In this document: piece by piece, positions 3,031 to 53,800 of the stretch
Numbering within the stretch: the stretch's first letter is position 1
How the letters are laid out: each line of letters opens with the position of its first letter
NCBI RefSeq assembly: GCF_030028105.1
Contig: NC_092378.1
Coordinates: forward strand, 40,217,967 to 40,281,966
Length of the DNA stretch: 64,000 nt
Reading direction: 5' to 3'
DNA from: Mobula birostris
Lineage: Eukaryota
Notes under the pieces: model-generated
What the model saw: the letters and a program-made list of their open reading frames with translations, nothing else
The model's database searches: none
What the model was told of the DNA's origin: nothing
Translations under genes and position numbers: made by a program

Positions 3031-6000
3031 CTGAATTAAAAAGCAATACAATAAATTAGTTTTCACAGTAGTTGAATGACAGAACAGTATTGAATTAGAT
3101 ATAGTAATGCATTCTTTAAAAACAAAAAAATTAAATTATCAGCTGGTATATAATGTTAAAATAAACCCCGTCCAAAATGTTGTCAAGTATAAAAAAAGAT
3201 TTTATGCCAGAATTAAATTAACCAAAAGTGTGCATTTGTAGAATCCAATATTCTTAATGCTTCCCTACAGTTTTGACTACTACAAAAACATGTTGCTACT
3301 GTGTAGTATCATTAATATGCAAATATCCAGAAACAACATGCATATTATAAATAATTACATACCATGCAAATGCCTTGCATAATACTGGTTAAAGTTCTGA
3401 AAAAAAACTTTAATTCTCCTGACAAGTTAGTTGAATTGCACTCAGTAACAAAGACTCAACTGAAAATTATTAAGTGTAACATGTTACCTGTGGCTGTACT
3501 ACTGGCAAAGTCTGGTGATGGGGTCTTTGGTGGAGCAGGATATGACTTTAATGTGGATCTTTTTTTTATGTCTCTATCAGCAACAGTCCCAGGTGTTTGT
3601 AAAAGCAAACATTCAGTAGCTAAATGAGGAAAAAAAATAAATGAAAAGTAAATCATTAAGTTTCCATTGGCCTCTTTCTGATTTACAGCGCCTTTTTGAT
3701 AGACTCTTCATAACAACTCTAAGATTTGGTTCTACAAGTATAAATAAATATTACTGATGATAACAAGCAATGCCTTATTGTTAATATTTATTTCTTAATT
3801 GAGACCAGGAACATGAGTGTCATGGCAAGGCCAGAATCTCTTTCAAATTCTTAGTTGACTCTGAGAAGATACTGGTGAGGCAAGCTCTTGAATAATAGCA
3901 GTTTTCCTAATCTTGTTGCTGAATAGGGTGTTCCTAAATTGTACCTGGTGACAATGAAGAAATGGCAATATACTGTATTGCCTTCAAGATGCTGTTATCA
4001 CACATTTGAAAGGTGCACTTGGAGAGGCCTTGGCAAATAACCACTGGGCATTTTTGCAGATAATACACACTACAGCCAGGATGGGTAGATTGGATGATTA
4101 AGGGTGGCAATCAAGTTCATAAGAATAAGGCAGGAGGAGAAGATGGTGGTGCGATGCAGCTTGCGGCAGCCACTCGGGTGAATGATATCTGTTATCTGTC
4201 AAGTAGGGTGCCATGCACAATCCAGATTTGATGGAGGCAGACGTGAGAGCACGGAGGAACATCTGTGAAACTTCTGAAATGCCTGCTTTGCTGCCGCTGC
4301 TACTGTGTGATCCAGAATCTCCAGAGGGGAAGGCTCCGAGTCCTTGGCTTTGCTTCTTGCTCGGCAGCCAGGGCGGGGTCGAAGCGCTTGGCAGAGATGG
4401 TGCTCGGTGCTCGGTGTTGGAGAGCTGGTTGGAGGCTCGAAGTTTTCGGACAGACTCGGCTGTGGTCAGGTGCTCACAATGCATCGGCAAGTTTGCGGCG
4501 CTTGGAGTTCATGGCAGGGAGAGTTTCTCCCTTCTACCATCTGCGTGAGATAATGGGGCTATCGGGACTTGAGACTTTTTTTTACCGTGCCCGTGATCTG
4601 CTCTTTATCAAATTACGGTATTGCTCTGCACTGTTGTAACTACATGTTATAATTATGTGGTTTTGTCAGTTTTAGTCTTGGTTTGTCCTGTGTGTCTGTG
4701 ATATCTTTCTGGAGGAACATTCATCATTTTTCAATGCATGCATTTCTAAATGACAATAAACGAGGACTGAGTGTCCTCATAATCCAATCTAATCATTTTT
4801 GCTCAAGATGGTATCAAGTCCCTTTGACTAACCATTGCATTTTAAGTATCTTACACATTTGTTACCCATGTGCCAAATCAAAGGCAACAAGACAAGAGCA
4901 AAAGTATGACATCGTTACTTTAAAGCAGGGTTTCTCAACCGGGGTTCCGTGAGAGGTTGCTGGTATTCTACAATAGATGGTGATAGAAATAAATCACCAT
5001 TTTTTTAAACTTTGCATGACACTAGCAATCACAGTGGTGGGCAGTGACCAACCAGTCCCATTAGCAATCTCATTAGAGGTCTCTCAGCATGGTATGGCAG
5101 TGTGCAGTAGGACTATGTTTATTCTCAGTGTATATTGCGAGATAGGGGAGGGCATTGATAACTGGTGAGCACTGCATTGCATGGAGGGGAGGATAGTAGG
5201 CTGATGATGAGCACTGTATTGCACGGAGGGAAGTGCGGTAGGCTTATGAGGACTGTGGTGCCTCTTCCAAGCATTGAATGGACTTGTCAACCTGGGCTGT
5301 GATGTCTCTCCCGAATTATCTCCCCCAACCGCCCCTTATGCGCCGACACCAAATTTATGGGAGTGAACAAACTCTACCAGTACAGTAGAAAATTTGAGGG
5401 AAATTTTGATTCTAAAGAAAGATTATTTACACACCATGACTCAGCTGTTGGCCTGCCGTTTTGGTGGATTGCGTAGGTTAGATGTCAATTGTATTCTGAA
5501 GTGTTCGTATTTTTTGTGGTTTTCTCATTTAGTTATTTATTATACCATTTAAAAAAAATTATTAACCCTTATTTCAGTGCTTCTAGTCTGTGGTAAACAA
5601 CTTACAAATACAGCAATGGCTCCAGCAAAATTGAAAAGGCACTTAAACTACAAATCACAGCCATATGACACATAATAGTGCTGATTATTTTAAATGGCTG
5701 TTGGAATCTCAGTAAAGCTTTTAATTAAAATCAATTTACAACCTTAATTTAAATTATATCTACTGAGCCTACCTTTAGAAAAATTAAGCTAGTTGGCATA
5801 AGCTAGTTAGTTAGCAGAAACTTATTATGTTTGCCTTATGAGTTTCTAAAATTTATGAAACAGAAAGAGATTAATTTCAAGAAAGGTAAGCTAAGCTTAA
5901 CTATCCATTAGTTTTTTCAAGAAAGGTTGACTAAAAAATCATTCTCTACTCAGAAGAGCATTGACAATTATTTTTAGATTATTATATCTACACCTACATG

Positions 6001-9000
6001 CTACATACTGTGAGCTGTAGATGTAATAATTTCTACACAGGGGTTCCCTAAGACCTGAACATTATTTCAAGGGTTCATCGAAGGCAGAAAAGTTGAGAAA
6101 GACTACCTTAAGGAATCATTGCTCTGATTAACTTCCGTCAAGACAGGAGTTTCCAAAGTTAATGGGAAGGTTCTATGATATTAAAAAAGTTGGGAACCAC
6201 TGCTTTAAGAAGAGATAAGGCCCAACATGTTTTCATAGGAAGTGGATGTAGAAAGCTATTGTTCCTCTGTGCACTGCCACTAAGAACCAAATTGCTACTT
6301 GTAAATCAATAAAATGGGGTACAGTGGGAGAGGTGAGAATAGAGCATAAGATATATTGGGGTGAGAGTGGAATTAATAATGCACTGATTAGACTGATATA
6401 GCAATGATCAGGACTACACTGCTTCCTGTCAGTAAATAAGAGAAAATACACACCATGGCTGTTATATTTTGTAACTTCAAAACATTAAACTAATTCAAAG
6501 GAAGACACGGGAGTCTGAAATATGAGTCTAACTTTGTATTTACTTTGAGTTAGGTGTGCATATATCACGTAGTAGCTTGATAACATATGCATTTCATGTT
6601 TTTATACATATAACCCATAATGAATTATTTTAATGAACAAGAAAGCATAATCAATCTATATATATATATATATATATAAACACACTGAAATACATCACTC
6701 AAATATCACTGAAGTATTAAATACACAACACTTCTCCTTGCTTACCTATATACTCGACTCAACAGAGAATGCATCTCAACTATATACACTGTATACTATA
6801 CTGTGTAATTAAATTATTATACACTAACATCTACAGCATAGTAAATTTTTAAATCATCCCATTCAGGCCTAAAGATTTAATTGCTGTGCAGGATTTCTTA
6901 CTCTTGTTGGGTAATATTTTTCCTGACGAGGAGAATCACTCTGCTTGGCAGGTGAGACTTCCGGTTGTGAAACCATCTCAGGTTCTGAGGCCTCCTCTAT
7001 GGTGGTTGTAGGAGTTGATTCTGAGACTGCAGGAAGTGGTTCTGACAGTAGTAGCCACCTTTCTTGTCTAACAATTGGGTCAGCCCTCCTCTGATGATTG
7101 ATCTGTCATTTCCAGGTGGTATTAGGTGTAATCTCCAGTCTGTGGGCGAATGCTCCCGTTCTGTCCTTAATCTTTCTGAGCACCCACTTCTGATCACCTC
7201 TGTAGTCCTTTGCCAGGACTGTTTGTCGAGGAGTGAAACATCAAACCTCCTTGTTTGAGGAGCCTTGAATTTGTCTTAGCTGTTTGTCCTGCACACTCCT
7301 TCTGAGATTGGGTTTGAGCAAATCCAAGCGTGAATGCAAGGGACAACCCAGGAACGGCATGGCTGATGAATTGTTGGTTCTGGAGTGTGCTGCATTGTGA
7401 TATGCAAGGAGGAAATTGGCGAGCTTTTGATTCAGTGTCAGTGCAGTGTTCTGCTGACATTGCTTGCAGTGCATTCTGTAGACTCCGGATAAACCTTTAT
7501 GCCAGGCCATTTGTAGCTGGGTGGTAAGGTGCAGATATAACATGCCTTATTCTATTCATTTTTAAGAATGACCAAAACTGTTCTGCCACACACCAAGGTC
7601 CATTGTCACTGACTAAGTGATCTAGAACACCATTCCTTGCAAAGACACTTCTTAACACATCAAAAGTGTGCAAGGCTGTAGAGGAGGCCACTGGGGACCC
7701 TTCTGGCCATTTTGTAGCTGCATCTACCATCACCAAGAAATTTGTGGCCATGAATGGTCCAGAAAAATTCACATAAGTCCTCTGACAATGCAAAGCAAGC
7801 CAAGCCATTCCCAGGTATAGAGAGGCACTGCTCTTGGTATCTTTTGGACGTGTTGGCATCCCACATAGTGCATGCAAACTGCTCAATCTGCTGATCTATC
7901 CCAAGCCACCCAACAAAGCGTCAAGCCAACACTTTCATTTTGACCATGCCTTGATGACAGGCATGGAGCTCCTCCAATACTTCAGCTCTCAGCTTGGATG
8001 AGGCAACTCTCAATCCCCACATAAGGTAATCTCCATCAAGAGCAAGTTCATCTCTGTCCTGACAAAAAATGGGAGAAGTAGAGTTTCTGCTGCATATTCA
8101 AGCCATTTTGCATGGCAATGTAGATCTGAGACACTTTGGGGTCCCTCCTGGTTTCCCTTTGCATTATCACTGCTGTAATATAGAGACTTCCGATTTGAGT
8201 TAGTGAGAATATGGCAAGAGGAGCATCTTTTCTCATTAATTTTTTACAGTATTTCCTTTTCCAAGGGTAAACAGAACACTCCATCAACATTTCCATGATT
8301 AGTCATCCTTTTGAATTCAATTTTGTAATTGTGTACTCCAAGAAACAGAGCCCATCCCTTTCTGTGGATTAAAAATGGACACTAGTAGTTGATGATCAGT
8401 ATATAATGATCTCCCATACAAGTACTGATCAAAATGTATTACACCACAAACTGGACTCAAGGACTCTCTGGCAATTTCTATGTGATTTTTCTCTGCAATT
8501 CCATCACTCATCACATGTGACATGACTGCATCTATACCATAAGGCAAGCTTTACTGGCCGAATATGGTTCATAATGTGTGAGTACAGTATCTGAGTACAT
8601 TTCCTTTACTTTTTTGAATACCATTCGCACTGCTTTGTCCACTGCCATTTCTTTCCGATCTTCAGTGATGAGTTCAAGGGGTGTAGCACACAGTATCCAG
8701 ATTTGGCAAGAACCTGTTATAGTAGCAGACAAATCCTAAAAAGGACTGCAACTGTGACATGTCCTTTGGCCTTGGGACATCCAGCATTGCTGAATTTTCT
8801 CAGCACACTTGCGCAATCCTCGTGTGTCATCAGTGTAACCACAGTTAAGTGGTGCATGGTTTAAAGAATTCACACTTGTTGCATCATGCTCTGAGCCCAT
8901 AATTTTCTAATCTTTTTAACACTGTCTTGAGGTTTTGGAGAAGTTCGTTGTCATCCTTAATGGTACAATGATGTAATCCAGGTAACACTGAGTGCTTGGG

Positions 9001-12000
9001 CAGCCTTGAAGCACCTCGTCCATAGTTTTCTGCCAGAGTGCAGATGCAGATGCACATGCTGCTCCAAAAATAAGCCTATTATTTTTTGCAAAGCCCTTTG
9101 TAAGTGCTTATGCTGTGAAAAACTTTGGACCCTCCATAAATGTTTGCAGAGATAACCTCTATCCTGGCATAGGGTATTCATCTACTTTCAGCACTGGGTT
9201 GATGGTGAGCTCTATATCGCCACAGGTGCCGACATACCGATTCTTCTAGGCTATTGGGGCCACTGGCATTACCCGTGAGCTCCTTTCAAGCTTGGAATGA
9301 ATTCCTTCAGTCTACATGCGATCGAACTCCCTAGCCACTTTATCACGGATGGTATAAGGAAACAGATGTGCTTTGCAAAACCTTGGTATGGCATTTTCAT
9401 TTAACACTATTTTACCCTTGATATGTTTGAGTGTTCCAATGTCATCACTGAACTCTGCTGTGACATCATCCAGTACCATTCTTAATTCGCTTTCTTATAG
9501 GGGATGTGGCCTGCAAATAGTGGGTGGATCTCCAATCAAGTTGTAGTTGTTTCAGACAATCTTGACCCCACAATGCTGGTCCTCGTGCTTGTACCACTTA
9601 CAAGCTCAATGTGGCTTGTTGGTTGTTGTATTTCACTGTTATAAATATCATTTCCGAAAGAGTTATCTTTTCTCCAGTATAAATTCTGAGTTGGATATCT
9701 GCAGGCTTCAGTTCAGTATCCTTGAAATGCTGTTCAAACTCTTTTTCTGGAATGACTGAAACAATGCAGCCAGTGTCCAATTCTATTTTAATTAATTTGC
9801 CATTTACTTCTGCTGTAAGCCATATTGCTTGTCTGTTGTTAGCTTTCACATTGTAAATGTTAAAACTATCCAGCTCTGTGTCACTCTTATCATTATCAGA
9901 TTTTTTCATCCCCGGCATGCAGATTAGTATTCTTTTTGAAACTGCAACTTGACTTTTTATCTTTGTCTCTTCTCACTGCAGACCATATAGTTTTGTCTGC
10001 CTGACATGTTCTTTGTATGTTTCTTACTTTGTTGCATTTTCTGCAAGTTTCACCTTTACATCTGCATTGGTCTGGTGAACGTGAGCCCCTGTCATAATGG
10101 TAATACCATTTGTTCGGCCAGGCTGATTTCTCTTTAGACCTTGCCATTTTGTTCATGCTCAATTTCATTCCTGACTGCAACTCAATTATGTCTCTGCAAG
10201 CTGTTTCCATTGATACAGCAATTTCAACTGTTCTTTTTAATGTGAGTTGTGCTTCCATTGGGAGCTCTTTTTGAATGCTTTCTTGTAAGATTCCACAAAC
10301 TAAACAATCTCTCAGTGCATCAATAAGCTCATCATGGAAGTGACCATGACAATCTCTTCAATTCAGCCACACACGCTGGAATGGACTCCCCTTCCTTTTG
10401 ATTCCACTTGTGAAACCTAAAGTGTTCTGCAGTCAACAATGGCTTCAATTCTAAATATTGTTGCATTACTTTCACAATAGTCAGCAAAGCTTACTTCTGC
10501 TGGTTTGGTTGGAGCAGTCAAACTTTAAAGCTATCTGTATGCCTTTGAACCCAATGCACTCAACAAAATGGGTACTTGATTATCATTGGCTATTTCATTT
10601 CCACCAAAATACTGTACAATTAGCTCAGTATACATGAGCCAATTACAGGTTATGTAGTCAAACACATTAATCTTTCCGATGTGACCAGCCATTCCTGTTC
10701 TTTTTATTTACGATTATTATTACCTGGCACTCACTGTTTATGAACCCTGAATTCTTCCATTTTCTGCCTTTTGTTTTAAAGTCAACTGTCTCTGCACAAG
10801 CTGTGCTCTACTGTTTTTTACTCACCATTTCTCACTGCACTTTTTTTTACTCCAACATCTCCCTGCCTTTCAACAGGTCAGTAGCCATCTCAGGTTTGTT
10901 TTAAAAATACCTTATCACCACTATTATGTTTTGTAACTTCAGAACATTAAACTAATTCAAAGGAAGACAAGGGAGTCCAAAATATGTGTGTAACTTTGTG
11001 TCTATTTTAAGTGAGCCATGCATGTATCAGGTGGTAGCATGATGATATATGCAGTTCATGTATTTATACCTATAACCCGTAATGAAGTATTAAATAGAAC
11101 AAGAATACTTAATCAAACAATATACATACAAGATTATTCAAATATCAAATACACAAGAATGGATTTTTTAATTAGGTTCCTCCTGGACCTAATAAAGCAA
11201 CCACTAACATATGTTTGTGGTCTTCTGCTGCTGTAGCTCATCCACTTCAAGATGCAATAAGTTGTGCATTAAGAGATGCTGTTCTACACACCACTGTTCT
11301 AACACATGGTTATTTGAAATAGTGTCACGTTCCTGTCAGCTTGAAGCAGTATGGTCATTCTCCTCCTCTCCTTTCTCATTAACAAAATTTTTTCATCCAT
11401 AGAACTGCCACTCGCTGGCTGTTTCTTTTTGACTTTTTGCACCACTTTCTGTAAACTTGAAATACTGTTGTGCATGAAATTCTCAGGAGATCAGCAGTTT
11501 CAGAGATACCACACCAGCCATTCTGGCAGCCACAATCATTCCATGGTCAAAGACACTTAGATCAGGTTTCAACAACTGAAACTCCTCACCATGTCTGCAT
11601 GCTTTTATGCATTGAGTTCCTGCCACATGATTGGCAGATTAGATATCTGCATTAGCAAACAGGTGTACCTAACAAAGTGGCCACTGAGGTCTTCTCATGG
11701 CCCCATCTGGCTCTCCTAATTTCATTCTTAGGCTCCTTCCTGCTAGCCTTATAATCTTCTAGATCTCTAACATTACCTAGCTCTCTAACATTGCCTCACT
11801 AACTCAAACTCAGTTCACTTATTCCTTAAATAGTCGTGACCTGAGACTTTAATGCAACTCCAAGACACTAGCAATCATCAGAATGCAACTTAGCCTTGGG
11901 GACAGATCACCAATTCACTTATACTTGAAAACATCCTTTTCAATAGGCACTTCAGAAAATTATTTGATTCATGCCCAATGATTTTGCTAATATCAAAAAC

Positions 12001-15000: not shown

Positions 15001-16781
15001 AAATAAATAAGTAAGGGTGGAACAATGACACAAAATTTAAAGCTGTTGCTGCACATGTAACCTCCGATGCTGTGGAGTTTCACATCCTCCCTGTGACCCT
15101 TCCAGCTTCCCCTTGGTGTTCCAGATTCCTCCCATGTCTCAAAAACACGCTGGTAAGTTAACTATCAATTGCAAAATACTTCTGGTGTATGTGGGTGACA
15201 GGAAAATCGGTGGACAGTATGTGAGACAGACAGGCTGTGGAGAAATGACTGGGGGAGAGCACTGAGAGGCAGCATGGACTCAGTTCAAATGGCTTCCGTC
15301 TGTGCCATTTGGAAATATGCCTAAATCTGTATAAAACTACTGTATAAAACTTGCAGTATTGTATAAGCTTCAACCATACCTGCATTTCTCTAAGTATTTA
15401 AAGTGCTTATTTGAATGAATGCCAAGGCTCATTCTGCTCACTCCCTCTGTACCTTCTCCAGTGCTTCAATTTGCATATATCATCTAGCTATTATCATATT
15501 TTGAGCAAACTGCAGACAGCCAATAAGAGAAAGCTTTTTCTGGAAATTGTGCCCAGGAAGGTAAAAATTAAATTTCCAACCTATGCCACTGAAGGGCTTT
15601 AGTGAATTTTCCAGTGAATACTTGCATGGTGGTACAGAGCTTCAGGCAAAACTGATTCGACATCTTTAGCCTCCAAGATAAGAACATTTACTATTACTAT
15701 ATCAATCCCACCTTTTATTAATAGCGCTATCACACCTCATTTGCCTTTCTGCTTATCGTTCCCAAATGTTAAGTACTTCAGAATATTTATTTCTCAGAAT
15801 TGGTCAGCTTGAGACCACATCTCTGTAATGGCTACAAAAAAAAAATTTATTTCTATCAGCCATCAATTCATTAATCTTGTTACCAATAATTTGAGCTACA
15901 AGTAAACATCTGAAAATATATGTAAGAATATACCTCCTGACCGCTCATTTGATTGATCAGGGGCAATTGAAGCAGTAAATTTAGTAGGGTCCAAACTTGC
16001 AGTACCTTCCATACCTCTACTGCTGCCATCTGTAACTGTAGGTCCTCCTGCTCTTGCATCATTTGTATTCATTGGTTTGAGAGAAATTCAAAAAAGAGAT
16101 ATAAAAACATTGATAATGTTAAGTTTTTTAAAGATACAATGCTATTTGAATGCAGTAGATATTGATAGCAAACAATTCCAGTAAAATGGGGGTGCACTTG
16201 GACACAAAAGCCACTCTGGGTCCAATCAAAGATGTCTTTCTTCATCTTTTATATCTTTTTTATGATCGCAAGTCACTGCTGGATGCTAAGAACATCAAAT
16301 ACTGCATGTCTATTCCATCAGAGTTGCAAGATAGCAATGAAGCTGGACTTACTGCATATCGTTACGTTGTCGCTTGGATTTGTTGTGTACTGTTATTGTG
16401 TTGAGGTTGTGTGCAGTCTGAGTGATTGACTTAGATGTTTTTATTGTGATCACAAGACCCTCTTGGTCATTGGTAACATGGAATACTGTAAGTCCAGTTC
16501 ACAGGTTTGGTGGCGAGATTGATGGCGGGGAGCTGCACTGGTTTGGTTGTAGTGAGAACTAGGGCCTCACCGCAGGGTTGCCTGTTGCAGTCGCTCAGGG
16601 GAGGAGATACTGAGGCAGTCTAGGAGTGAGCAGTGGCCTCTGTAGGCATCCTGTAGTCTGTACTGGGTTGGGGCTGACCCCGCCCATTGGTGCCACCCTC
16701 CAGTGTTTGCTTAGTGGAAGAACAAACTGAAGCAGGTCAACTTACTATTAACATGCAATTATGCCACTTAGGAACTTGGGT

Positions 16782-16812
<31 letters not shown>

Positions 16813-19800: not shown

Positions 19801-22800
19801 GTTGGGGTCATGTTTCTCTGTTTTGAATTTTGAAACCATCTGCACTTTGCCACTCAGTGTTTCAGCCATTTTGAGTGATAAATTGAATGATCAAAGTATC
19901 AAAAAAAAAACAGCAGTTGGTGAAAATTTGAAGAGAAACGATCAAAAGCTGGAAATACTCAGCGGATCCAGTGTCACATGTACAAGTGAATGATCAATTA
20001 TTCTGTCATTTTGATGCTTTAGTTTAAGGGAAGAACAGTGGCATACTCACTGCAAATTAAATGACCTTTCAGATAGTACAATAGTCAAAGAAAAGGAAAT
20101 GTAAATCACCATCTTCTGAGTTCAATAAATCAGAAAATACCTGTCAAGTTGTGACAGAGTACATGGTGCTACTGCAGACAAAAACTCACAATTATTGCTT
20201 ACAAATATCAGCTAGTACTTTGAGTAGAGTAAAACTAAATAATTCTAAGGCATCTTGCTAACAAGTTAAATTGTACATTACCTTCTGGCATCTCATGTGA
20301 TGGACCAGATGTAGAGCTTTCTGTAGTAGTACATTTGAAACAGTCCAAAATTATTGCAGCTTCACCCATATGAATTTTGCTACAGTCTATAATTAGAGAT
20401 TCTGTTGCTGTTAGGCCTTTACTCATATTTATCGATTCAAGAATATTCAACAGAAGAGAGAAGAAAAGTGAAAATATTAATTAAAATACATCCTAAATCT
20501 TTCATTGCCATTGATTTTTATAGACCTAGAAGTCTACAGGAAATCAACAAACTGTAGTGACACTAACAGTAAATGCTCTAACACAGTCAATACTTACAAA
20601 TCTCTCTTTACCTTCCCTACCCGTGTTTCTCCAAAGTTTTTATTCTTATCTGCACTCATTTCATTGGTTGTCACTTGGAAAGCAAACCTGTCTATGCAGG
20701 AATGTGGTAAAAGTCAACAAGTCAATGAGTCTTGCACATCCCTTCAGTGAATTAGTCAGCTCCATTTTGGGTACTAGCCTCCATAGTATCAAAGACATCT
20801 TCAAGGAACGGTACCTCAGAAAGGCAGTATCCATTATTAAGGACCCCCTATCACCCAGGACATACCCTCTTCTCATTGTTACTGTCAGGACAGGGATACA
20901 GAAGCCTAATGACAGACACTCAGTGATTCATGAACAGCTTATTCCTCTCTGCCATACAATTCCTAAATGGACATTGAACCCATGAACTCTACCTCACGTT
21001 TTTATATATATTATTTCTGTTTTGCACTATTTTTAATCTAACTATCTAATATACATATATACTTAATTATCTACATATCTATTTTTTCTTTCTATATTAT
21101 CACGTGTTGCGTTGTACTGCTACTGCTAAGTAAACAACTTTCACGACACATGCCGGTGATAATAAACCTAATTCTGATAGTTCTATGGCTCTGATTTTAG
21201 ACACCTAACAAAGTGCTGCAGAAAGTTGCACTACTTATGGGGAATTACAAAAATAAATAAATAAGAAACTCAGAAGGAAGTTTGGTATTTGCTGCCAACT
21301 TATGATACCATTAATTTAAATAAAAGTTTATATTACAAACCTTTTGAGGAGTTTGACAGGTTCAAGTCAATGTTTCCCCTGACTGGAATACTAGAAACTA
21401 TGAGGTATCAGTCATTCAGAGCAGAGATACGAGAAGGAATTATTTTCACCATTGAGTGGTGAATCCTTGGAATTCACAATCAGTAAGATTGTAAATCAAG
21501 GGTCTGGGAGTTACTGCAGGAGGCTGTGTTGAGGTAAATGATCTAACTGATAGCAAAACAGGCATAAGAAGATGAATGATTTATTCCTGCTTCTATTTCT
21601 TATATATTTTCAATTAATAAAAATTAGTTCAATACTAATTTTAGATTTAAGTATGTAAATGTCAAACTGTAACCATTTAGTTCTCCTGACTAATGCTGAT
21701 GAAAAGTCTCAGCCCAAAATTTCAACACTTTATTCCTTTCCACAGATGTTGCCTGATCTGCTGAATTCCTTCAGCATTCTGTCTATGTTACTTCTACAGA
21801 ATATTTTGTGTTTACCATTTACTAATTCGCATTGTGCAAATTTGGTTTTCTGTCCAAGTTAGGAATGTATGAAAAGAAACAGGCCATCCAGTCCCTCAGC
21901 CTTGTTCTGCCATTTAATCAGATTGTGGACAATATGTATCTGAACTTAATTTAGCTATATTTGTTTCACACCTATTCACTACATTTAACAGAAGTCTCTA
22001 ACCTAAAATTCACCACCTTATGTGAGAGGGAGGTTCAGATTTCCACTATGAGATATGCTTTCTATTTTTCATATTGCAGCACAACTTTCATCTAAGATCA
22101 CAGCTTGTTCCAAATTCCCTCACTAGAAGAAATAACTTCTTTGTATTCACCTTAAAGAATCTAATAGCTTTTTAACCAACACCCCTAAATATTCTAAACT
22201 CAGAGACAAAAATAAGTTTATACAATTCATCCATATGGTTTAATGGTTCATACACAGTGAAATGGGGAATTTGAACCAACTCTCCTTCAATCCAAATACA
22301 ATTTTCATGAACTTTATGGATCAGAATACAGGCCTATAATTATGCAATAGCGCAAGCATGCAAATTCCACTCGTTTCCTTCCACAGCACCTAATCCCAGC
22401 CTACAACAGATATATTTTGTATGGTGTTTCTCATGTCCAAGGGCTCAATCTGCAATGATATTTTCTTATTCCTTCACCAGGTATCAGCATCATAAGCAAA
22501 AGCATAATCCAAGGTACATGACTATGTTTTACCAAAAAAATGTACAGTCACCAATGCTTGTGTCCGCCATTCATTCCAGAATTTACTTATTTACCTTAAT
22601 TTAAATTCTGTAGCTAATATAGTGGGATTTAATTTCATGTTACAGTTGCTCACTCTATGCCTCTGAACTACTATTCTCTAGCCTAGTGATTCCCAATCTG
22701 GCATCCACAGAGCCCTAAGTTAATGGGAAGGCTCCTTGGCATAAAAAAGTTTGGGAACCCCTGCTCTAGCCATATTTCTCTGTTCTGTGAGCTTACAAGA

Positions 22801-25800
22801 ATGAACTTGCTTACCCTAGAGAACAGACAGTGCCAGCAGGAATTTTCATTCTTTGAAGATTCTTGGCTAAATTATACTTTAAATGGAAATATGTACAACT
22901 GGAATATAAATTGCAAGTTGCACCATTTAGTTGGAGATGAACTCTAAGCAACCATCTGATTGCAGCATTTTGATCAGTTTAAGTTTAGAGATACAGTACA
23001 ACTTCCACACTCTTCCTTCAGTTCATACTGAATAGCCGAGGCTCCAGTACAAATGATCAAGAAGCCATGCTGTCACATCATGCTGGGACAACTATTTACA
23101 CAGCAAAATAGACAAAACAGGAAATATGTTTTCAGTCATAATGCATAACTAGTATTTCTGAAGTATTGCTCACTGCAAAATCACCTTGCAATTATAAAGT
23201 GAAATGTTTTAACGTTAGAGTAAAATGTGCAGTGGCTGATGCTGAATCTAATTTTGAAGTTTCTGCAATAGTACACTATAATAATTCTATCCTATTATTA
23301 AATTATGTTAACAACATAATTGTGGTCTTTATTAAAACATTAATAGTATAAGCATGAAAAATACAAATTATTGTTGTCATTTATGTCTTGTTATTTGTCT
23401 TAATTTTTGTTTGTTCTACTGTGTTTTAACATTGTTCAAACAAAATTAGGTGTTAATGCAACTAATTTTAAAGGTAATGTACACCAGGATACATCCAGAT
23501 ATAAATAACAAGTTAAATAGTTTGAAATGTCAATATTACCTGTTTTTGTTACATCAGCTAAATTTGCCTCTGGTGTTGCAATTGGACTTTTTCCCATTGT
23601 TTCATCCATTATGACTTCAGCAGTTGGACCTTCCCCAACACCATGATTTATGATTTCAGAATCAACTATTCCATCAAACGAATGAACAAAAATGAGTTTG
23701 CAGCCAGCACAAATATAATAAATGCCTACTGTAGTTTTTGAAAATCATTGCTAATCATAATCTAACCACATAATCCAGCATGATTGATTGCTAAAATGAT
23801 TACTGTGCACGCTGTCAAAGAAGCTGATCAATTATATGCAGCATGATTGATTGTCATGCTGTTCACTGTCAAAGAAACCAACAAGTTTATTTTTCTGCTC
23901 TATTGCATATGTTCATAAATTTTGTGTATTGATATGCTGATTTCAGCAAAAGTGTTGGAGAAGGAAATATCAGTTACGCTTTCACAAAACAAAACATGGG
24001 AAAATTATTCCTTTTGGTCTATATTAGTATGCATTTTTGTTCCTGGCAGCTGTAAAAAGGAAGAAATGTCCTTTTGTTTATTAAATAGGTGAATACTCCA
24101 TTCCCCTTCTTTCCAATAACTATTAACTCAATTGGCATCCCCTCCATTCTTATCCATTGTGCTCCCTGAACAAAATAATCCCATGAAACGGAATCCGTCC
24201 TGATAGTCAATGGCCATACTGTCCTACACTCCTGCATATCAATTCTTCAATCGTTTTTCTCACTAGCCTTACTTATTCTTCCTAAATTTCCACAAATATT
24301 GAACTCCCAAAAAGCAAAAAAAAATACAACTACAAATATTGGAAGTCTAAAATATTAAAAAAAACAGAAAATGTTAGAAATATTCAGGAAGTCAGACAGT
24401 ATCCATGGGGACAGAAATCTTTCAGGTCAATGATCTTTTATCAGAACTAGGTAAAGTTTAAAAAAGGCACGTCATTTTAAGTTGCAGAAAATGGGGAGGG
24501 GTGAAAAGAACAAAGGGAACATCAGTGATAGGTTGAAGATCAAAAGGGAGGCTGAGTGACATACACTCAGTGGCTATTTCATTGGGCACCTCCTGTACCT
24601 AATAAAGAGGCCACTGAGTGTATGTTTGTGGTCCTCTGCTGTTGCAGCCCAACCATTTCGCTTTGAGATGTTGTGCGTTCAAATGCTCTTGTACACACCA
24701 CTGTTATAACACGAGATTATTTGAGTTACTGTTGTTTTCCTACCAGCTGGCCATTACCCTCTGATCTCTCTCATTAACAAGGCATTTTTGCCCACAGAGC
24801 TGCCACTCACTGTTTGTTTTTTGCACCACTCTCTGCAAATTCTAGAAACCACTGTGCGTGAAAATTTCAGGAGATCAGAAATTTCTGAGATACTCAAACC
24901 AATCCGTCTCGCACCAACAATTATTCCATAGTCAAAGTCATCTTCAGAAGTTTTCTGATGACTCTGCCATAGTTCATCAGCAACAGAGATGAGGCTGAGT
25001 ACAGGGCTATGGTAGGAAACTTTGTCACATGGTGTGAGCAGAATTATCTGCAGCTTAATGTGAAAAAGACTAAGGAGCTGGTGGTAGACCTAAGGAGAGC
25101 TAAGGCACCGGTGACCCCTGTTTCCATCCAGAGGGGTCAGTGTGGACATGGTGGAGGATTACAGATACCTGGGGGTACGAATTGACAATAAACTGGACTG
25201 GTCAAAGAACACAGAGGCTGTCTACAAGAAGGGCCAGAGCCGTCTCTATTTCCTGAGGAGACTGAGGTCCTTTAACATCTGCCGGACGATGCTGAGGATG
25301 TTCTACGAGTCTGTGGTGGCCAGTGCTATCATGTTTGCTGTTGTGTGCTGGGGCGGTAGGCTGAGGGTAGCAGACACCAACAGAATCAACAAACTCATTT
25401 GTAAGGCCAGCGATGTTGTGGGGATGGAACTAGAATCTCTGACGGTGGTGTCCGAAAAGAGGATGCTGTCCAAGTTGCATGCCATCTTGGACAATGTCTC
25501 CCATCCACTACATAATGTACTGGTTGGGCACAGGAGTATATTCATCCAGAGACTCATTCCACCGAGATGCAACACTGAGCGTCATAAGAAGTCATTCCTG
25601 CCTGTGGCCATCAAACTCTACAACTCCTCCCTTGGAGGGTCAGACATCCTGAGCCAATAGACTGGTCCTGGACTTATTTCCTGGCATAATTTACATATTA
25701 CTGTTTAATTATTTATGGTTTTATATTGCTATATTTATACTCTATTCTTGGTTGGTGCAACTGTAACAAAAACCAATTTCCCTCAGGATCAATGAAGTAT

Positions 25801-28800
25801 GCCTATGACTAAAGTCACTTGGACCACATTTCTTCCCCATTCTGATGTTTGATCTGAACAACAACTGAACCGCTTGACAATATCTGCATGTTTTTATGCA
25901 TTGACTACAAGATTGGTTGATAAGATATTTGCATAAACGAGCAGTATACGGGCGCACCTAATAAAGTAACCACTGAGGTTAGATGCTGTTGATGTCAGCT
26001 GAAGGTGAAGGCTTGTTAGTTGCCATCTTGTGTGTCTGGACAACATGTAAATAGAGAGAGGTGAATGAGAACACAAGGGAGATGAAAAACACAACAACGT
26101 TATAATACTGAGATTAAAAATAACACATTTATCAGAAATTTAAAATAAACAGAAGACTGGAAATACTCAGCCAGTCAGGCAACATTGGTGGAGAGAGGAA
26201 AACTGGATTAGCATTACAGATTAATTACCTTAATGATAGGCTGTTATCTGAAATCATTGAATTCTGTTAGGTCACAGGAAATATGATGTGCCCAGATGAA
26301 AGGTAAAATACTGTTCCTCTATCTTATATTGAGGTTAAGTGGAATATTAAAAGAGGTCAAAGACAGAGTGATCAGAGTAAGTAAAATGCGCAATTGCCGT
26401 GACAGTTCACAGATCCAGGTATTTTCTACTGCACTAAATCTCTTCCACACACACACTCACTCACTCACCAAGGTCCCCATGTACAACATTTTTTCCATAT
26501 TTGAACAGAAATAAAGTTATATTATGTGAACTTATCAACATTACCTGGCTTGGAATCCTCAGCATGATCTGGTGTTACCACATGCTTTGTTTCTACTGTT
26601 TCATCTGTTGTGATTTCCTCTTGTGTCATGACTCCTTCAGCTGTACCATCTTCCACATGGTCTGAACTTTCAGGTTCTTCTATTCCACCAAATTAATATA
26701 AATAATATTAGTTTGTGGTACAAATAGAAAAATACTTGGGTTCTAAAAAATATAGAACCACATAACCTAACCACATAAAATCAAAATAATTGATCATAAG
26801 GCTAGCCGTTTTAAACATTGTCACAAAAGCAAGTGTAAATACCTTCCTATCAAATTGTTGGACATCAATGTGCACCTCCATACCTTTTCACAATGACTGG
26901 AGAAAGACAAGCAACCTTTCCACAAATAAAGTCTAGTTTTTAGAGCATTAGAAAGTTTTTGACAAGAACAGGCCATTCGGCCCAACAAAGCTTGCCAAAT
27001 TCCTATTCACATAGTGTGTTGAAATAATTATTTAGCTAAGATTTAAAAGTCTCTAAGGTACTACTTTCAACTACACAACCAGGTAGTTTGTTCTGCATGT
27101 CCACTACTCGCTGTGTAAAGAAATGCTTCCTGATGTTAGTCTGAAATCTCCCCTTAACAAGTCTCCACCTATGGCCCCGTGCCCTTGATGATGGATTAAT
27201 TTTGAAGTAGCAGCTGGCATTCACTTCACTTGTACCCTTAATGACTTTGAGCACTTCTATCATGTCTCCTCTCATTCTACGTCTGTATAGACTAAAATAC
27301 ATAATTATTTCAAACTTTCTTTATAGCTCATACCCTGCAGACCTGAAGTCTAGCCATCCTTCTCTGGACTCTCTCCAGTGCCTTCACGTCCCTCACACAA
27401 TATGGGGACCAAAATTGTATGCAATATTCAAGGCATGGCCTCACAAGTGCATTGTACAGCTTAAGGAAAATATCTCTTGACTTGAACTCCACTGAGCACA
27501 TTATATAGCCCAACATTCTATTAGCCTTCCTAATCGCTTCTGTGCATTGTCTAGATGTTGATAGTGATGAGTCTACCAGGATGTCCAAATCCTTCTCATA
27601 CACAGCAATTCCAACTCAAGACCCCCCATCGTATAGTTATATCTAATATTTCCCCTTCTTATATTTAATACTTTATCTTTACTTACATAAACCTTCATCT
27701 GCCATTTATCTGCCCACATCTGGGTTTTGTTTAGGTCTAACTGTATTGATTCTGTTGCCTAAATGTTATCAACCCGTCCCTCTAATTACGTGTTCCCAGC
27801 AAACCTAACTTGTTTACTTGTTATGTGTTTATCCAAACCATTAATGTAAATTAAAAATAGCAGCAGCCCCAAAACCAATCTCTGCAGAACCCCACTTTTA
27901 ACATTTTCTAGGTGTAAAAATGATCCCCTCAACCTTAACTCATTGTATTCTGTTTTTGAGCCAATTCTGTACCCATTCGCACACCTTACCCTGAATCCCT
28001 ATCTCCTGTAATTTGATTATTAACGTCACGTTGAGTACCTTGTCAAAAACCTTCTGAAAGTCCAAGTAGATGATATCAACTACTCTAATGTTATCATAAA
28101 CTTTAGTTGTCTCCTCATAGGACTCCTGCATATTAGTAAAACATGATTTCCCCTTTCTGAACCCATGCTGGCTTTCTGCTAACATGCCTGTACTTATCAG
28201 CTGCTTTTCCATCTCATTCTTTATTATTGTTTCCATTACCTTGCCTTTGATACATGTTAAGCTTACTGGTTTATAGTTACCAGGGTCAGTGTGGTCACGA
28301 TTCTTATACACTGGACAACATAGCCCATTTCCAGTCCTTAGGATTTCACCAGTCTTCAATGACTTTTGAAAAATATATGTTAGAGGTTTGTATATATAAT
28401 CACAGACCTCTTTAAGTAGCCTTGAATATATGTTCTCTGGTCCTGGAGATTTATTAACTTTCAGCCTTTTCAGCTGAAGCAAGATCTCACTTTCTAAGTT
28501 CTCTAAGTCACTTAAAACTATCTTATTTTTCTCTACACATACTGGCATATTGCTGACATCTTCACAGGTGAATATTTTAGCAAAATATGAATTAAGAATA
28601 TCTGCTATGTCCTTCTCTGTATAATTTAATACCCCACTATTATTCCTAATACACTTAACTTCCTCCTTGACTTTTCTGATTTTTCTTTTACTACTAAAAT
28701 ATTGAAAAAAAAATGCTTAGGGTCAATCTTAGCATTATCAGCAATATCCTTATCAACCTGCCTCTTAGCAATCCAAATTTCCCTCTTGACTGTAGCTCTC

Positions 28801-31526
28801 ATATTTTCATATGTCCTATGATTAACATCATTTTTATTTTTTCTGTATTCCTTATACAGCTGTCTTTTCAATATTTTTGATGTATATCTATATTCATCCA
28901 TGTAGTTGAACTATTTTTTTTATTGCTTCTTCCGATCTTGGGTATAAACATTTCCTACACTGCATGTATTACCTCTTTAAATCAACCCCACAGTTCTTCA
29001 ACCGGCTCAACATCAAGCAGATCCTTCCAGTTTACCTTCTGAAGTCTTTGCCACATCTGCACAAACTTTGCCTTTCTGAAATCCAACTTAATGGCTTTGG
29101 TTTTACTGATATACTCTCCCAAAGACTTGGAGACTAACAATGTTATGATCACTTGTTCGTAAATGCTCAACAACTTCCATACTCAAAATTCTATTCTGAT
29201 TGTTACAGAATATCAAATCTAGATAGGCCTCCCCTCTTGTTGGTGTATTAACATACTGGGTCAAAAAACAATCAATCAATATCACAATTAATTCAATTTC
29301 CTGTAATCCATTAGTCACTGGGTTCTCCCACTCAATATTTGGGAAGTTAAAGTCATACATCACTATAACATTACCCTCAGAACTTGTTTCTTTTTAATAT
29401 TCTGATAGAGTTATTTATTAAAATCATGACCAGCATTGGGGGGTGTATAAAGTACACCCAGTATTATTCTTTTATCCTTATAGCTTTCAATTCTCACCCA
29501 GCTATGTTCACTAAGTCTCGATTCATCTCCTATCGTAAGCAGCATCACATTTAAATTCTCTCTTATGCATACAGCTACTCCTCCACCTTCACGATCTTGC
29601 CTATCTTTCCTAAGTAAAGTATATCATTTAATACTATATTTATCACCATGTTTTGAGGTCAGTCAGGTTTCAGTTATTGCTATTACATCAAATTTATATG
29701 CACTTGTACATTATTCTAGCTCACTTATTTTATTCTTAATACTTCCTGCATTTATACAGGCCATCCGTAGTCTATTACTGATGTATTTCATCCTATTCTG
29801 ACCCACTTGTATATTTTTGAAGCCTGTAATTGGTTTACGTCCTAATATGTTATTCTCCACTAAGGTGTTTATAATTGTGCCTGGCCTCTTCTGAGTTCCC
29901 TGTACCCCATTCCCTAGTTTAAACAGTCCTCAACCAACTGAAGCATACGCCTGCCCAGTACATTAGTGCCCCTCCAGTTGAAATGCAACCCGTCCAGCGG
30001 TACAGCTTCCATGTCCCCCAAAAGGCATCCCAATGTCCCATAAACCCATGCCCCTCTAATCTACACCATGATTTGAGCCGTGCGTTAAATCTTCTAATCC
30101 CCTCTATCTTATCTAGACTGGCATGTGGCACAGGCAGAACTTCTGAGAAGACTATCTTGTCAGTTCTATTCCGAAACTTCCCACCTAACTCTTTAAATTT
30201 GTCTTGAAGAACAGGCAGCCTGCCCTTACCCATGTCATTTGTTCTGATGTGGACAATGACTACTAGATCCACCCCAGCTCTGGCCAGTAGCTTATCTATT
30301 CATCCAGGGACATTTCCTACTTGTGCTCCTGGTAGGCAACACACTGTATAAGATTCCTTGTCAGTACTGACCTGATTCTCAAACCCCCTTCCTCCCCCAC
30401 CCCCCGATAATCGAGTCCCCTATTATAACTACTTTTTTTTTTACAGGGTTTAGGGATAGGATTAGAGGGTCCTGCGGGGCTCCTCTGTACTGCCTACCAT
30501 CTCAGAGTACTTCACCAATTATCAAACAAAAAGGAAGAAACCATCTTGTTGACTTGCCAATTATGAGATGTCACCTATCCTAATTTCCCTTCCACCAATC
30601 ATCAAACTCTAATGCTTCCCTCTGTCATGTCTCTCACTCAGCTGTTGGCACACTGCTTATTTGTGGAGGGCCAGGAAATGTATGTGGCAGATTGTACAAA
30701 GTGTAGCAGAGCCAAACATCTGAGAAGAGTATCTTTTAAAAAAAGATATCAAAGCATTAGAGCATAATGTAAAATAGATGCCAATGCCAAAGCAAAAATA
30801 TTGCTTTGTGTATTTCAGTCAAAGAACCTAAGCAAGAAGGTAATGCTAGACTTGTGTACAAGACCACTCTGGCCATAGCTAGCGATCTGGTCACTACATT
30901 AAGGAAATGTGTGACAACAATAGACAAGGTTCAGAGGAGGCTTACATGGATGCTGTCAGGTGGGGAAAAGCTGAGTTATGAGAAAAGTCGCTTTATGAGA
31001 GTTAAGTTGAGATCCTTGGCACAGGATAGCTGAAGGGTGATTTAATCAAGGTGTAAAAAATTGGGCCAAAAGTTGATGATATGAAAAAAAAATTCTCTTA
31101 GAAGAGAAGTTAATAACTAGGAGATACATTTTATATAATAGGCAGAATGATTTAAAAAATTTACTGAAACACACTGGCTAAATTGGTGGAAGAAGCAGAA
31201 AGCCTGAGCATATTTAAACACTTGCAAGACTACAGACTAAGAGAGAAAATCCTCATGGTAATAAAGATAAAACTTTTAGAGCTTGATTCACCTGAATGTA
31301 ACATAGCAGTATTATCAATTTTGGTTGATGCATCAACCATCCCATCTGCTGGTTTGTCAGAAGGATACTCCTGTGACACTTCATCAGTGTGTGTGTGCTG
31401 ATCGGAAGGGCTTTCCACTACTTCAGGATCATCACTTGGTTCTTGTGTTGCATGGGTAAAGTCTTCCTTCTCCAGCGAATCACCTTGCTCCTGAGTTTCC
31501 AGCATATGCTTTTCATTTTCTGCCAT
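2896..31526 (-). CDS. IQUB: IQ motif and ubiquitin-like domain-containing protein, 5' part (multi-exon; 3' exons lie left of the window)
   Basis: The spliced junction DFASSTAT|VKVALLPSDDVMTVALPICLTIGKLKSRFGRQLKLPTQVLQVTCDG matches the recalled vertebrate IQUB start of the ubiquitin-like domain (..DSLATVKVVLIP..LQIRYSG). Synteny with NDUFA5 and ASB15 agrees. Proposed coding exons: 31292-31526, 26545-26679, 23540-23665, 20282-~20407, 15934-~16047, 14620-14745, 3488-3619, 2896-3030, all ending in phase-1 GT donors. Confidence 0.88.
3488..3619 (-). CDS. IQUB: IQUB exon preceding the ubiquitin-like domain (132 nt, phase 1-1)
   Basis: ttttcctcatttag acceptor and G|gtaac donor. Ends PDFASSTAT, matching the IQUB ..DSLAT motif. 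Confidence 0.85.
4140..4795 (+). mobile_element. Non-autonomous retroelement (SINE-like), second copy at ~40430-40880
   Basis: Starts AAGATGGTGGTGCG and ends tgacaataaacgaggactgagtgtcctcataatc(taatc). Colinear with 40430-40880. Confidence 0.65.
4926..6202 (+). mobile_element. hAT (Charlie/Buster-type) deletion derivative
   Basis: CAGGGTTTCTCAAC left end. Two possible right ends (~6105 and 6202, GTTGGGAACCACTG) with imperfect 8-bp TSDs (ctttaaag). Internal BED-finger remnant LVCGKQLTNTAMAPAKLKRHL at ~5580-5650. Confidence 0.75.
6460..11158 (-). mobile_element. Degenerate full-length Ty3/Gypsy LTR retrotransposon
   Basis: LTRs at 6460-6730 and 10922-11158. TSD atggc/atgga. PBS-like TGGTGA after the 5' LTR and PPT before the 3' LTR. 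Gag zinc-knuckle remnant (CRKCNK), protease ELDTG, RT/RNase H remnants and integrase (VDAATKWPE, VSDNGP, APYHPATNGLA) in PR-RT-RH-IN order, with many stops and frameshifts. Confidence 0.93.
11164..11690. mobile_element. Tc1-derived MITE (left TIR split by the Gypsy element)
   Basis: Colinear with 24563-25979. Right end ggtgtacctaacaaagtggccactgag. Confidence 0.75.
12010..14473 (+). mobile_element. CR1 LINE, 5'-truncated (APE endonuclease C-terminus + RT), few disablements
   Basis: [52 protein letters not shown]; (ttctat)n tail. Confidence 0.95.
14620..14745 (-). CDS. IQUB: IQUB N-terminal exon (126 nt, phase 1-1)
   Basis: Open frame (A)IEPSLTCEELKKKLEAQIQAIEEVHGKIEPAVSESPVSKTK, with tgtccag acceptor and G|gtaaag donor, in non-repeat DNA. 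Confidence 0.65.
15015..15310 (+). mobile_element. Old V-SINE / HE1-like SINE
   Basis: V-domain-like tgtggagtttcacatcctccctgtgacc...ttcctcccatgtctcaaaaacacgctggtaagttaact. Confidence 0.55.
15934..16047 (-). CDS. IQUB: IQUB N-terminal exon candidate (phase-1 donor; acceptor uncertain)
   Basis: Open frame GGPTVTDGSSRGMEGTASLDPTKFTASIAPDQSNERSG with G|gtatat donor. Resembles the 20282 exon. Confidence 0.5.
16170..16990 (+). repeat. Second copy of the repeat family at 165-1540, with internal (TA)n
   Basis: Shared blocks and terminal aaacatgaacttgaact. Confidence 0.6.
17130..17812 (+). mobile_element. Ancient CR1 RT fragment
   Basis: Decayed LNQYFA, QHGFMK and P-Q-T-S-V-M-G-P ([10 protein letters not shown]) motifs. 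Confidence 0.55.
18110..18566 (+). mobile_element. CR1 3' fragment
   Basis: MIEVYKILR...TRGHGFKVRGGKFKGDVRGRFFTQRVVGAWNALP; (ttctatg)n tail. Confidence 0.9.
20282..20407 (-). CDS. IQUB: IQUB N-terminal exon candidate (126 nt if ctaacag acceptor)
   Basis: Open frame ATESLIIDCSKIHMGEAAIILDCFKCTTTESSTSGPSHEMPE. G|gtaatgt donor, identical to that of the 26545 exon. Confidence 0.55.
20730..21180 (+). mobile_element. LINE 3' end (Rex1/Babar-like)
   Basis: RKAVSIIKDP..P motif; ends ggtgataataaacctaattctgat. A similar tail occurs at 38540-38750. Confidence 0.65.
23540..23665 (-). CDS. IQUB: IQUB N-terminal exon (126 nt, phase 1-1)
   Basis: (V)DSEIINHGVGEGPTAEVIMDETMGKSPIATPEANLADVTKT, with ggaatag acceptor and G|gtaatat donor. 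Confidence 0.7.
24563..25979. mobile_element. Tc1-derived MITE carrying a nested LINE
   Basis: TIR-like cactcagtggctatttcattgggcacc and cacctaataaagtaaccactgag. Same family as 11164-11690. Confidence 0.75.
24941..25810 (+). mobile_element. Rex1/Babar LINE, 5'-truncated
   Basis: KFSDDSAIV, LNVKKTKELVVD, YRYLGVRIDNKLDWSKN..KKGQSRLYFLRRLRSF. TSD aaagtca at 24934-24940 and 25811-25817. Confidence 0.9.
26545..26679 (-). CDS. IQUB: IQUB N-terminal exon (135 nt, phase 1-1)
   Basis: Acidic peptide (E)EPESSDHVEDGTAEGVMTQEEITTDETVETKHVVTPDHAEDSKP, with ggaatag acceptor and G|gtaatgt donor. Confidence 0.72.
26940..30500 (-). mobile_element. Near full-length degenerate CR1 LINE with SGNH-esterase ORF1
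   Basis: ORF1 block I VIIGDSII (~30410-30430) and VHIRTND. ORF2 APE (DFNFPNIEW, PTRGEAYLDL, SDHN) and RT (GNYKPVSLT, LDFQKVFDKV). 3' FFTQRVV and tandem tail. Confidence 0.93.
31292..31526 (-). CDS. IQUB: IQUB first coding exon (ATG at 31526, 78 codons + 1 nt)
   Basis: MAENEKHMLETQEQGDSLEKED...MLHS, acidic low-complexity like the IQUB N-terminus. aaATGG Kozak context, upstream pyrimidine tract, G|gtgaat donor. Confidence 0.75.
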
Positions 31527-53394: not shown

Positions 53395-53800
53395 GGTTGC
53401 AGCGGTGGATTGTGGGACCGCCTCCAGCCCAGTTAAACGAGCGCCGAGCTGCCGCCGGTTCCAGACTCGATGAGTGGAGTGCCGAGAGCTGGGAGACGGG
53501 AGGCCGACTAGCCAGTGGGTTGGTGCCTGGATTTGGCCGTCAGCCGCCGACCTTGAATCCGCCACAGGCCCAGCGGGTTGTGGACAGGGGAGGGTGCAGC
53601 TGCTGCTGTTTCTGCGGGTGGGAGTGTGCGAAGTGGGGATCGCGGGGTGGTAACTTCATCGGAGGCTGTTCGGCCCTACAAGTGAGTGCTGGCCCCTTGA
53701 GTAGTCCCATTACACGAAGGCACTGATTGATTATCTTCCCCGCCCTGAGTTACAGATGTCGAGTGTTTCGGCCTGTCACTGTCTCCCTGGCCCTCCAACC
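53380..53800. promoter_or_regulatory. CpG-island promoter of NDUFA5, possibly bidirectional with ASB15
   Basis: The only strongly GC/CpG-rich non-repeat segment. Contains GC-box-like ccgcc motifs. A plus-strand donor CAA|gtgagt at 53682 could end a non-coding exon. Confidence 0.75.

Follow-up and report, generated by a model that had tools for sequence, protein, structure and literature searches.

The N-terminal tail of IQUB in the ray Mobula birostris is, on what we consider the likely account, assembled from seven spliced coding exons, including two pairs of tandem duplicates (A/B and C/D), and forms a predicted disordered, acidic segment in which changes of length would be cheaply tolerated. 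This account is supported by homology within A/B and C/D that reaches deep into the upstream introns, the existence of two module families, variable copy number, a truncated exon D, and acidity that is kept across tail lengths. The gene lies on the minus strand of a 64,000-nt stretch of contig NC_092378.1 (assembly GCF_030028105.1, positions 40,217,967 to 40,281,966), hereafter the window, in which all coordinates are given.

The ray IQUB gene and the exons of its tail

The gene was called IQUB in the first-pass annotation, and this call is borne out—the IQUB-like domain PF25805 is matched at 216 bits (curated cut-off 27.8), and chain 8j07_c2 of human IQUB aligns with the ray protein from residue 304 onward (E 1e-227). 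Both the ubiquitin-like (UBL) domain and the IQ motif of the ray protein are alignable to human IQUB, with Pfam ubiquitin (E 0.004) and IQ (E 0.11) matches that fall under their cut-offs, and an AlphaFold2 model predicts a strand-strand-helix-strand-strand unit at residues 305-379. The conserved core comprises 11 exons, from the UBL exon, which has a single match in the genome searched (G000), into the 30 kb past the window start. The N-terminal exons are already represented in RefSeq models; in the M. birostris model P0003 their translations are 96-100% identical to ours, edge effects aside. As described in the available part of one study (PMC11755891), IQUB is a component of the radial spoke 1 stalk in human and mouse, and the human gene has 13 exons, with the UBL domain at residues 131-207—in keeping with the roughly 130 residues given for this region in the first-pass annotation—and with c.842 in exon 5. 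The counterpart of human residue 281 lies in the ray gene's third core exon, so the human N-terminus, judged from these exon counts, should span at most two exons ahead of the UBL exon; the ray has seven coding exons there.

Between the ATG exon (E1) and the UBL exon lie, as first annotated, six stop-free, AG/GT-bounded segments of phase 1-1, A to F, all on the minus strand (Table 1). They were located by reading the sequence in the case of A to E, and these five were then confirmed by RefSeq models and assembled contigs. One contig each from runs X1 (3718 nt) and X2 (2853 nt), which belong to two studies, joins E1-A-B-C-D-E-F with none skipped, F being represented by a loose end that matches its opening bases; direct splicing of E1 to F is absent from both. 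The runs are typed ‘RNA?’, which is a guess, but the contigs skip introns at canonical ends. Exon B is a listed piece in X2 and is placed in X1 by a 127-base gap between A and C together with equal depth at 23597, and a third run, X3, contributed one piece on exon A. Runs X4 and X5 gave no piece on D or E, and X6 none on an exon among the pieces listed, blanks to which we attach no weight; none of the listed runs holding this sequence is recorded as RNA. In the contigs, exon C is spliced at its 135-nt acceptor (20416), an alternative 126-nt form being possible from a second AG, and this leaves B and E, rather than three exons, at exactly 126 nt. Exon D is open for 114 or 117 nt and is spliced as 33 nt, which brings the region ahead of the UBL domain to ~307-310 residues instead of the ~330 first estimated. 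The peptides are rich in E, T, S and P, as had been noted, these residues making up 36-51% of each of exons A-F versus 24% of the core. A further acceptor, in frame and of phase 1, lies two bases ahead of the start codon of E1 (31528-31292, 237 nt, itself 1-1), and catshark and horn-shark models include a few extra residues from an exon upstream of E1.

Table 1. Exons of the IQUB tail, the UBL exon, and duplicated blocks, in window coordinates
Feature	Position	Strand	Length and phase	Remarks
E1, ATG exon	31526-31292	minus	235 nt, phase-1 end	78 aa, acidic, net charge -17
Exon A	26679-26545	minus	135 nt, phase 1-1	in a batoid-specific clade of the B family; paralogous to B
Exon B	23665-23540	minus	126 nt, phase 1-1	B-family module of sharks and rays
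Exon C	20416-20282	minus	135 nt as spliced, phase 1-1	member of the C family, paralogous to D
Exon D, spliced form (both contigs)	16047-16015	minus	33-nt stub, phase 1-1	canonical ends (joint 14745/16015); RefSeq model P0003
Exon D, distal part	16014-15934	minus		open in frame; coding in stingray models; spliced out in both contigs
Exon E	14745-14620	minus	126 nt, phase 1-1	not detectable as duplicate; predicted helix; weak chimaera match
Exon F	3619-3488	minus	132 nt, phase 1-1	not detectable as duplicate; runs into first UBL strand; chimaera match
UBL exon	3030-2896	minus	135 nt, phase 1-1	starts the run of 11 core exons
Duplicated block around A	26479..26794	minus		~115 nt upstream intron, exon, ~65 nt downstream intron
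Duplicated block around B	23477..23788	minus		partner of A block
Duplicated block around C	20279..20543	minus		~127 nt upstream intron, exon
Duplicated block around D	15931..16185	minus		partner of C block

The full extent of exon D (15934-16050) offers tandem acceptors and three in-frame donors, giving 33, 42 or 114 nt. The shortest (33 nt, donor at 16015) is used in both contigs and the longest in stingray models; RefSeq model P0004 splices from the second internal donor, at 16006, and D is 33 or 42 nt long in the closest RefSeq models. We dropped the idea that Mobula-specific mutations created the internal donors, as the Gly needed by the 33-nt donor is also found in skates, sawfish and Narcine, with Asp at this site in stingrays.

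Elsewhere in the window, three exons upstream of IQUB (52575-50283, minus strand) match the PF04716-bearing N-terminal part of P0027, which we take to be a complex I subunit resembling NDUFA5; the human NDUFA5 gene is presumably a neighbour of IQUB. A CpG-rich stretch at 53001-54000 lies near these exons. The E-F intron contains 208-nt direct repeats (6459-6666 and 10921-11128; 82% identical, 4462 apart) enclosing a decayed stretch that by eye resembles a putative LTR retrotransposon, and the E1-A intron contains a decayed, putatively LINE-like stretch at ~27000-30300, likewise recognised by eye and covered by many divergent contigs.

Two pairs of tandem duplicates and two module families

Comparison of all 28 pairs among eight exons singled out two. 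For A/B, similarity to the partner exceeded shuffled sequence in protein (p 0.008), in DNA (z 3.0) and in the upstream intron (z 7.7); for C/D, protein similarity was not significant (p 0.18), with strong signals in DNA (z 9.5) and in the upstream intron (z 7.2). The other 26 were no better than shuffles after allowing for 28 tests. With 80-nt flanks included, A/B scored 145.5 (DNA identity 70%) and C/D 133.5 (65%), against a mean of 52 +/- 8.5 and a maximum of 74.5 for the remaining 151 control pairs drawn from the gene's own 18 exons. In both pairs, homology extends 115-138 nt into the upstream introns, from which it follows that the copied blocks included the splice signals. Both pairs are tandem duplicates. 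An array of duplicated exons, as the first-pass annotation had it, holds for these two pairs and does not extend to the rest: E1, E and F showed no homology to any other exon in protein, DNA, flank or profile comparison. Marginal protein scores for E1/UBL (p 0.025) and B/F (p 0.039), and marginal upstream flanks for B/E and B/UBL (p 0.006), did not stand out against the real-exon control and were set aside. An exact-seed repeat search did not pick up the exon pairs, and no extra copy or pseudo-exon scored above 9.4 bits in the window and 120 kb downstream. Searching G000 for a donor locus elsewhere returned self-matches only for the B and C blocks, in an insensitive search that did not recover A and D. 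Both A and B, and both C and D, sit on the same contig in X1 and in X2, so the copies are not mutually exclusive.

Whether all six exons descend from one ancestral 1-1 exon, with all except the two youngest pairs diverged past recognition, is a separate question, and we think such an origin unlikely. Their shared phase and their lengths of 114-135 nt would fit it, as would the apparent presence of two pre-UBL exons in human, which implies joint gain or loss of several phase-1 introns. Such lengths are ordinary for exons, and no signal of common origin appeared at the exon (protein or DNA), flank or profile level, either between the two families or between them and E1, E and F.

Under the account that we favour, in which two separate exons were duplicated, a genomic block with one phase 1-1 exon and its splice signals would have been copied in tandem, probably by unequal crossing-over; the copies would have stayed in frame, harmless and retained because they sit between phase-1 introns and the tail offers no fold for them to disrupt. 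Two unrelated exons may have gone through this in early elasmobranchs, with further rounds later in single lineages (skates and horn shark), and modules also shrink or vanish, as with D, cut to 33 nt in Mobula.

To place the tail among animals, we used the best 120 of 797 matches to the conserved core, with isoforms added from cluster look-ups. In this set of top matches, which is without mammals, pre-UBL length was 269-430 residues in 21/21 elasmobranch species (median 309), and in the 101 other listed IQUBs the median was 193 (quartiles 157-228, maximum 445), the length anchor being inexact in Trachemys, Chrysemys and the Latimeria model of RefSeq at least. A long N-terminus is not unusual in itself, contrary to what had been supposed—at least 290 residues precede the UBL domain in 8 of those 101, and the Ensembl chimaera model has 341, with a 7-residue repeat, the RefSeq chimaera model starting later (151). 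Acidic residues exceed basic ones (D+E 16-39%, K+R 2-12%) in the N-terminus of all 75 listed proteins, at lengths from 88 to 445. Internal repeats (z of at least 10) were present in 14 of 51 hand-picked non-chondrichthyan tails, namely in turtles, salamanders, a frog, coelacanth (twice), hemichordates and a nemertean, with periods of 10-42 and mostly 10-28 residues.

Profile comparison of 11 module sets resolved two families: B, comprising batoid A and B and shark A' and G (A-B E 3e-6, B-A' E 2e-4, B-G E 9e-6), and C, comprising batoid C and D and shark C1 and C2 (E 6e-5 to 8e-14). It gave no links between the families or to E1, E and F, the best cross-family value being E 0.024. Against the 101 non-chondrichthyan N-termini, the B- and C-family profiles had no match of at least 8 bits (top shuffled 5.9 and 7.0), nor did they match the chimaera, which among the proteins compared places both in elasmobranchs only. 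Exon E has a weak chimaera match (11.8 bits, top shuffled 8.2), and F a clearer one (16.8 bits, top shuffled 2.2) along with one 9.3-bit toad match. The extension is not confined to rays, and in all 21 elasmobranchs it draws on these two module families. What is peculiar to elasmobranchs, going by the protein sequences, is the exon-sized unit and not the length of the tail.

Within the 21 elasmobranchs, B-family copies number 1 to 5 per species. Near-identical 45-46-residue repeats (z 30-122) occur in Leucoraja, Amblyraja, Rhinoraja and Heterodontus, marking recent gains of A (x2 in Leucoraja, x3 in Amblyraja) and of B (x2 in Rhinoraja, x4 in Heterodontus), exon boundaries in these other species being drawn from proteins and isoform gaps rather than DNA. 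Three of the four Heterodontus B copies cluster in the tree (97/87), and one Heterodontus isoform lacks exactly one 45-residue unit. Batoid A copies form a single clade (99/96), so A likely arose in the stem of rays and skates; the module trees rest on few columns and are compatible with both one and repeated duplication of C. Among losses, Mobula lacks most of D, and C is absent from the longest model of Narcine. In Heptranchias (P0019, residues 138-235), the two C-family modules are far more alike (z 30) than those of other sharks, which reflects either recent duplication or gene conversion.

Skipping, predicted disorder and constraint in the tail

The earlier proposal of combinatorial isoforms raises a different reading of the modules, as regulated cassette exons, skipped so that different cell types (sperm versus motile cilia) can adjust how long and how charged the tail is. 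We regard this as quite improbable. All introns here are of phase 1, which keeps every skip in frame, and models lacking whole modules exist in 10 of the 14 elasmobranchs with at least two models (13 isoforms). The acceptor AG of each of A to E is, moreover, set apart from its pyrimidine tract by a purine-rich stretch, and a simple-matrix scan of splice sites recovered E1, F and the UBL exon only, missing A to E although they are used. Against regulation, no skip appears in the two contigs or the three RefSeq models of M. birostris—nor in the models of Hypanus, Rhincodon and S. canicula—and the module skipped varies by species (A'+B, B, C, C1, C2, D, E, F), with 12 of 13 isoforms lacking a single module and one lacking two adjacent ones, as expected of low-level splicing noise at frame-preserving exons. 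The symmetry of the exons is not independent evidence for regulated skipping, since any exon surviving in a phase-1 intron needs to be of phase 1-1. Skips can keep the frame, and some level of skipping is probable; the skip isoforms are automatic annotations, and contigs, of which two were seen, can lose rare isoforms.

In the AlphaFold2 model (62-row alignment, mean pLDDT 62.8, pTM 0.30), pLDDT is below 50 at residues 1-226 and 248-297, and the only confident helix of the tail spans residues 229-246, in exon E. Residues 1-226 are accordingly predicted to be disordered, in line with the earlier expectation for the extension, with the caveat that low pLDDT in the tail can also stem from the shallow alignment there. 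Conservation is uneven along the tail. E1, A, B and C are 49-58% identical to their Leucoraja counterparts, E 74% and F 80%, compared with 83% for the core; with three sharks the figures are 70-77% for F and 80% for the core, and E and F span 57-80% identity to sharks. Between this ray and the closer Hemitrygon, A, B and C are 93-96% identical and the core 95%; modules as conserved as the core at this distance count against a fully neutral tail. On these alignments the tail reads as bipartite, with an acidic zone, E1 to D, that varies, and a chondrichthyan element, E-F, that is held under constraint beside the UBL domain. Exons E and F (14620-14745 and 3488-3619) bring together the predicted helix and a basic/proline motif, without a Pfam match. 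E-F is the best candidate for a lineage-specific binding site.

These patterns bear on a further reading, in which the modules are functional repeats, carrying binding or phosphorylation motifs, whose number is under selection, with for example a flagellar partner specific to elasmobranchs binding to the C motif and the E helix. An (I/L)(I/L)xDC(S/T)K-like motif is retained by the C family in sharks and rays alike, F approaches the core in its identity to sharks, E holds the sole confident helix, and elasmobranch sperm have a distinct helical architecture, according to the accessible portion of one report (PMC11856307). We nevertheless doubt this reading strongly: Mobula manages without most of D and the longest Narcine model without C, different module halves have been lost in different shark copies, and the tail has no Pfam match with E up to 1.

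In the favoured account of duplicated exons in a disordered segment, the tail would be an acidic spacer, constitutively spliced in and suspended from the stalk of radial spoke 1, with selection acting on charge and disorder more than on copy number, and E and F would form a separate, older and more constrained chondrichthyan element beside the UBL domain. Counter to a pure spacer, B and C modules are recognisable in nearly all 21 species and the C-family motif is kept, which at the level of sequence suggests some sequence-specific constraint. A bolder version—an evolutionary accordion shaped by selection, in which sharks and rays adjust how long and how charged the spoke tail is by adding, trimming and skipping whole exons, while the E helix and the F motif dock a flagellar partner specific to cartilaginous fish and tied to helical sperm motility—strikes us as a long shot.

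Relation to known systems

The ray protein shares the domain order UBL, IQ, IQUB-like, the 11 core exons and an acidic N-terminal tail with IQUB/FAP253/CMUB116, the PF25805 proteins of the radial spoke 1 stalk. It differs from human IQUB, which has 130 residues and, as reasoned above, at most two exons before the UBL domain, in having ~307 residues and seven coding exons there, and in its two elasmobranch-only module families. In turtle, salamander, coelacanth, hemichordate and chimaera, the same region is lengthened to 230-445 acidic residues, with repeat units mostly of 7-28 residues, as opposed to the exon-sized modules of 33-49 residues in elasmobranchs.

Internal tandem duplication of symmetric exons is a frequent origin of disordered regions, and the part of that survey available to us (PMC3632108) describes calpastatin and MAP2 as class 1-1 and SCPP/AMBN as class 0-0 examples. 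Ray IQUB has in common with these proteins its symmetric exons, tandem duplication of exon-sized units and variable copy numbers, its disorder being a prediction. Unlike the ray modules, those of calpastatin and MAP2 have known binding functions in the text consulted, and ray IQUB, in contrast to the proteins described there, is modular in its tail only, the core being a conventional folded scaffold. Mutually exclusive exons, as outlined in the accessible section of another study (PMC9741552), are likewise adjacent homologous exons that arose by tandem duplication, whereas both ray copies sit in the same transcript. A/B and C/D are thus a known mechanism of symmetric-exon duplication in a gene that is new for it; in the open-access literature, with most subscription journals outside the search, we found no paper on a duplicate origin of IQUB tail exons.

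Should the length and charge of the tail have no effect on radial-spoke signalling, ray IQUB would be an ordinary case of this known mechanism. If they do tune such signalling, the role of the IQUB N-terminus would be testable by swaps in the existing Iqub knockout mouse. The family offers a natural series for the growth of a disordered tail, which lengthens by duplicating whole exons in elasmobranchs and through short repeats in several other groups of animals.
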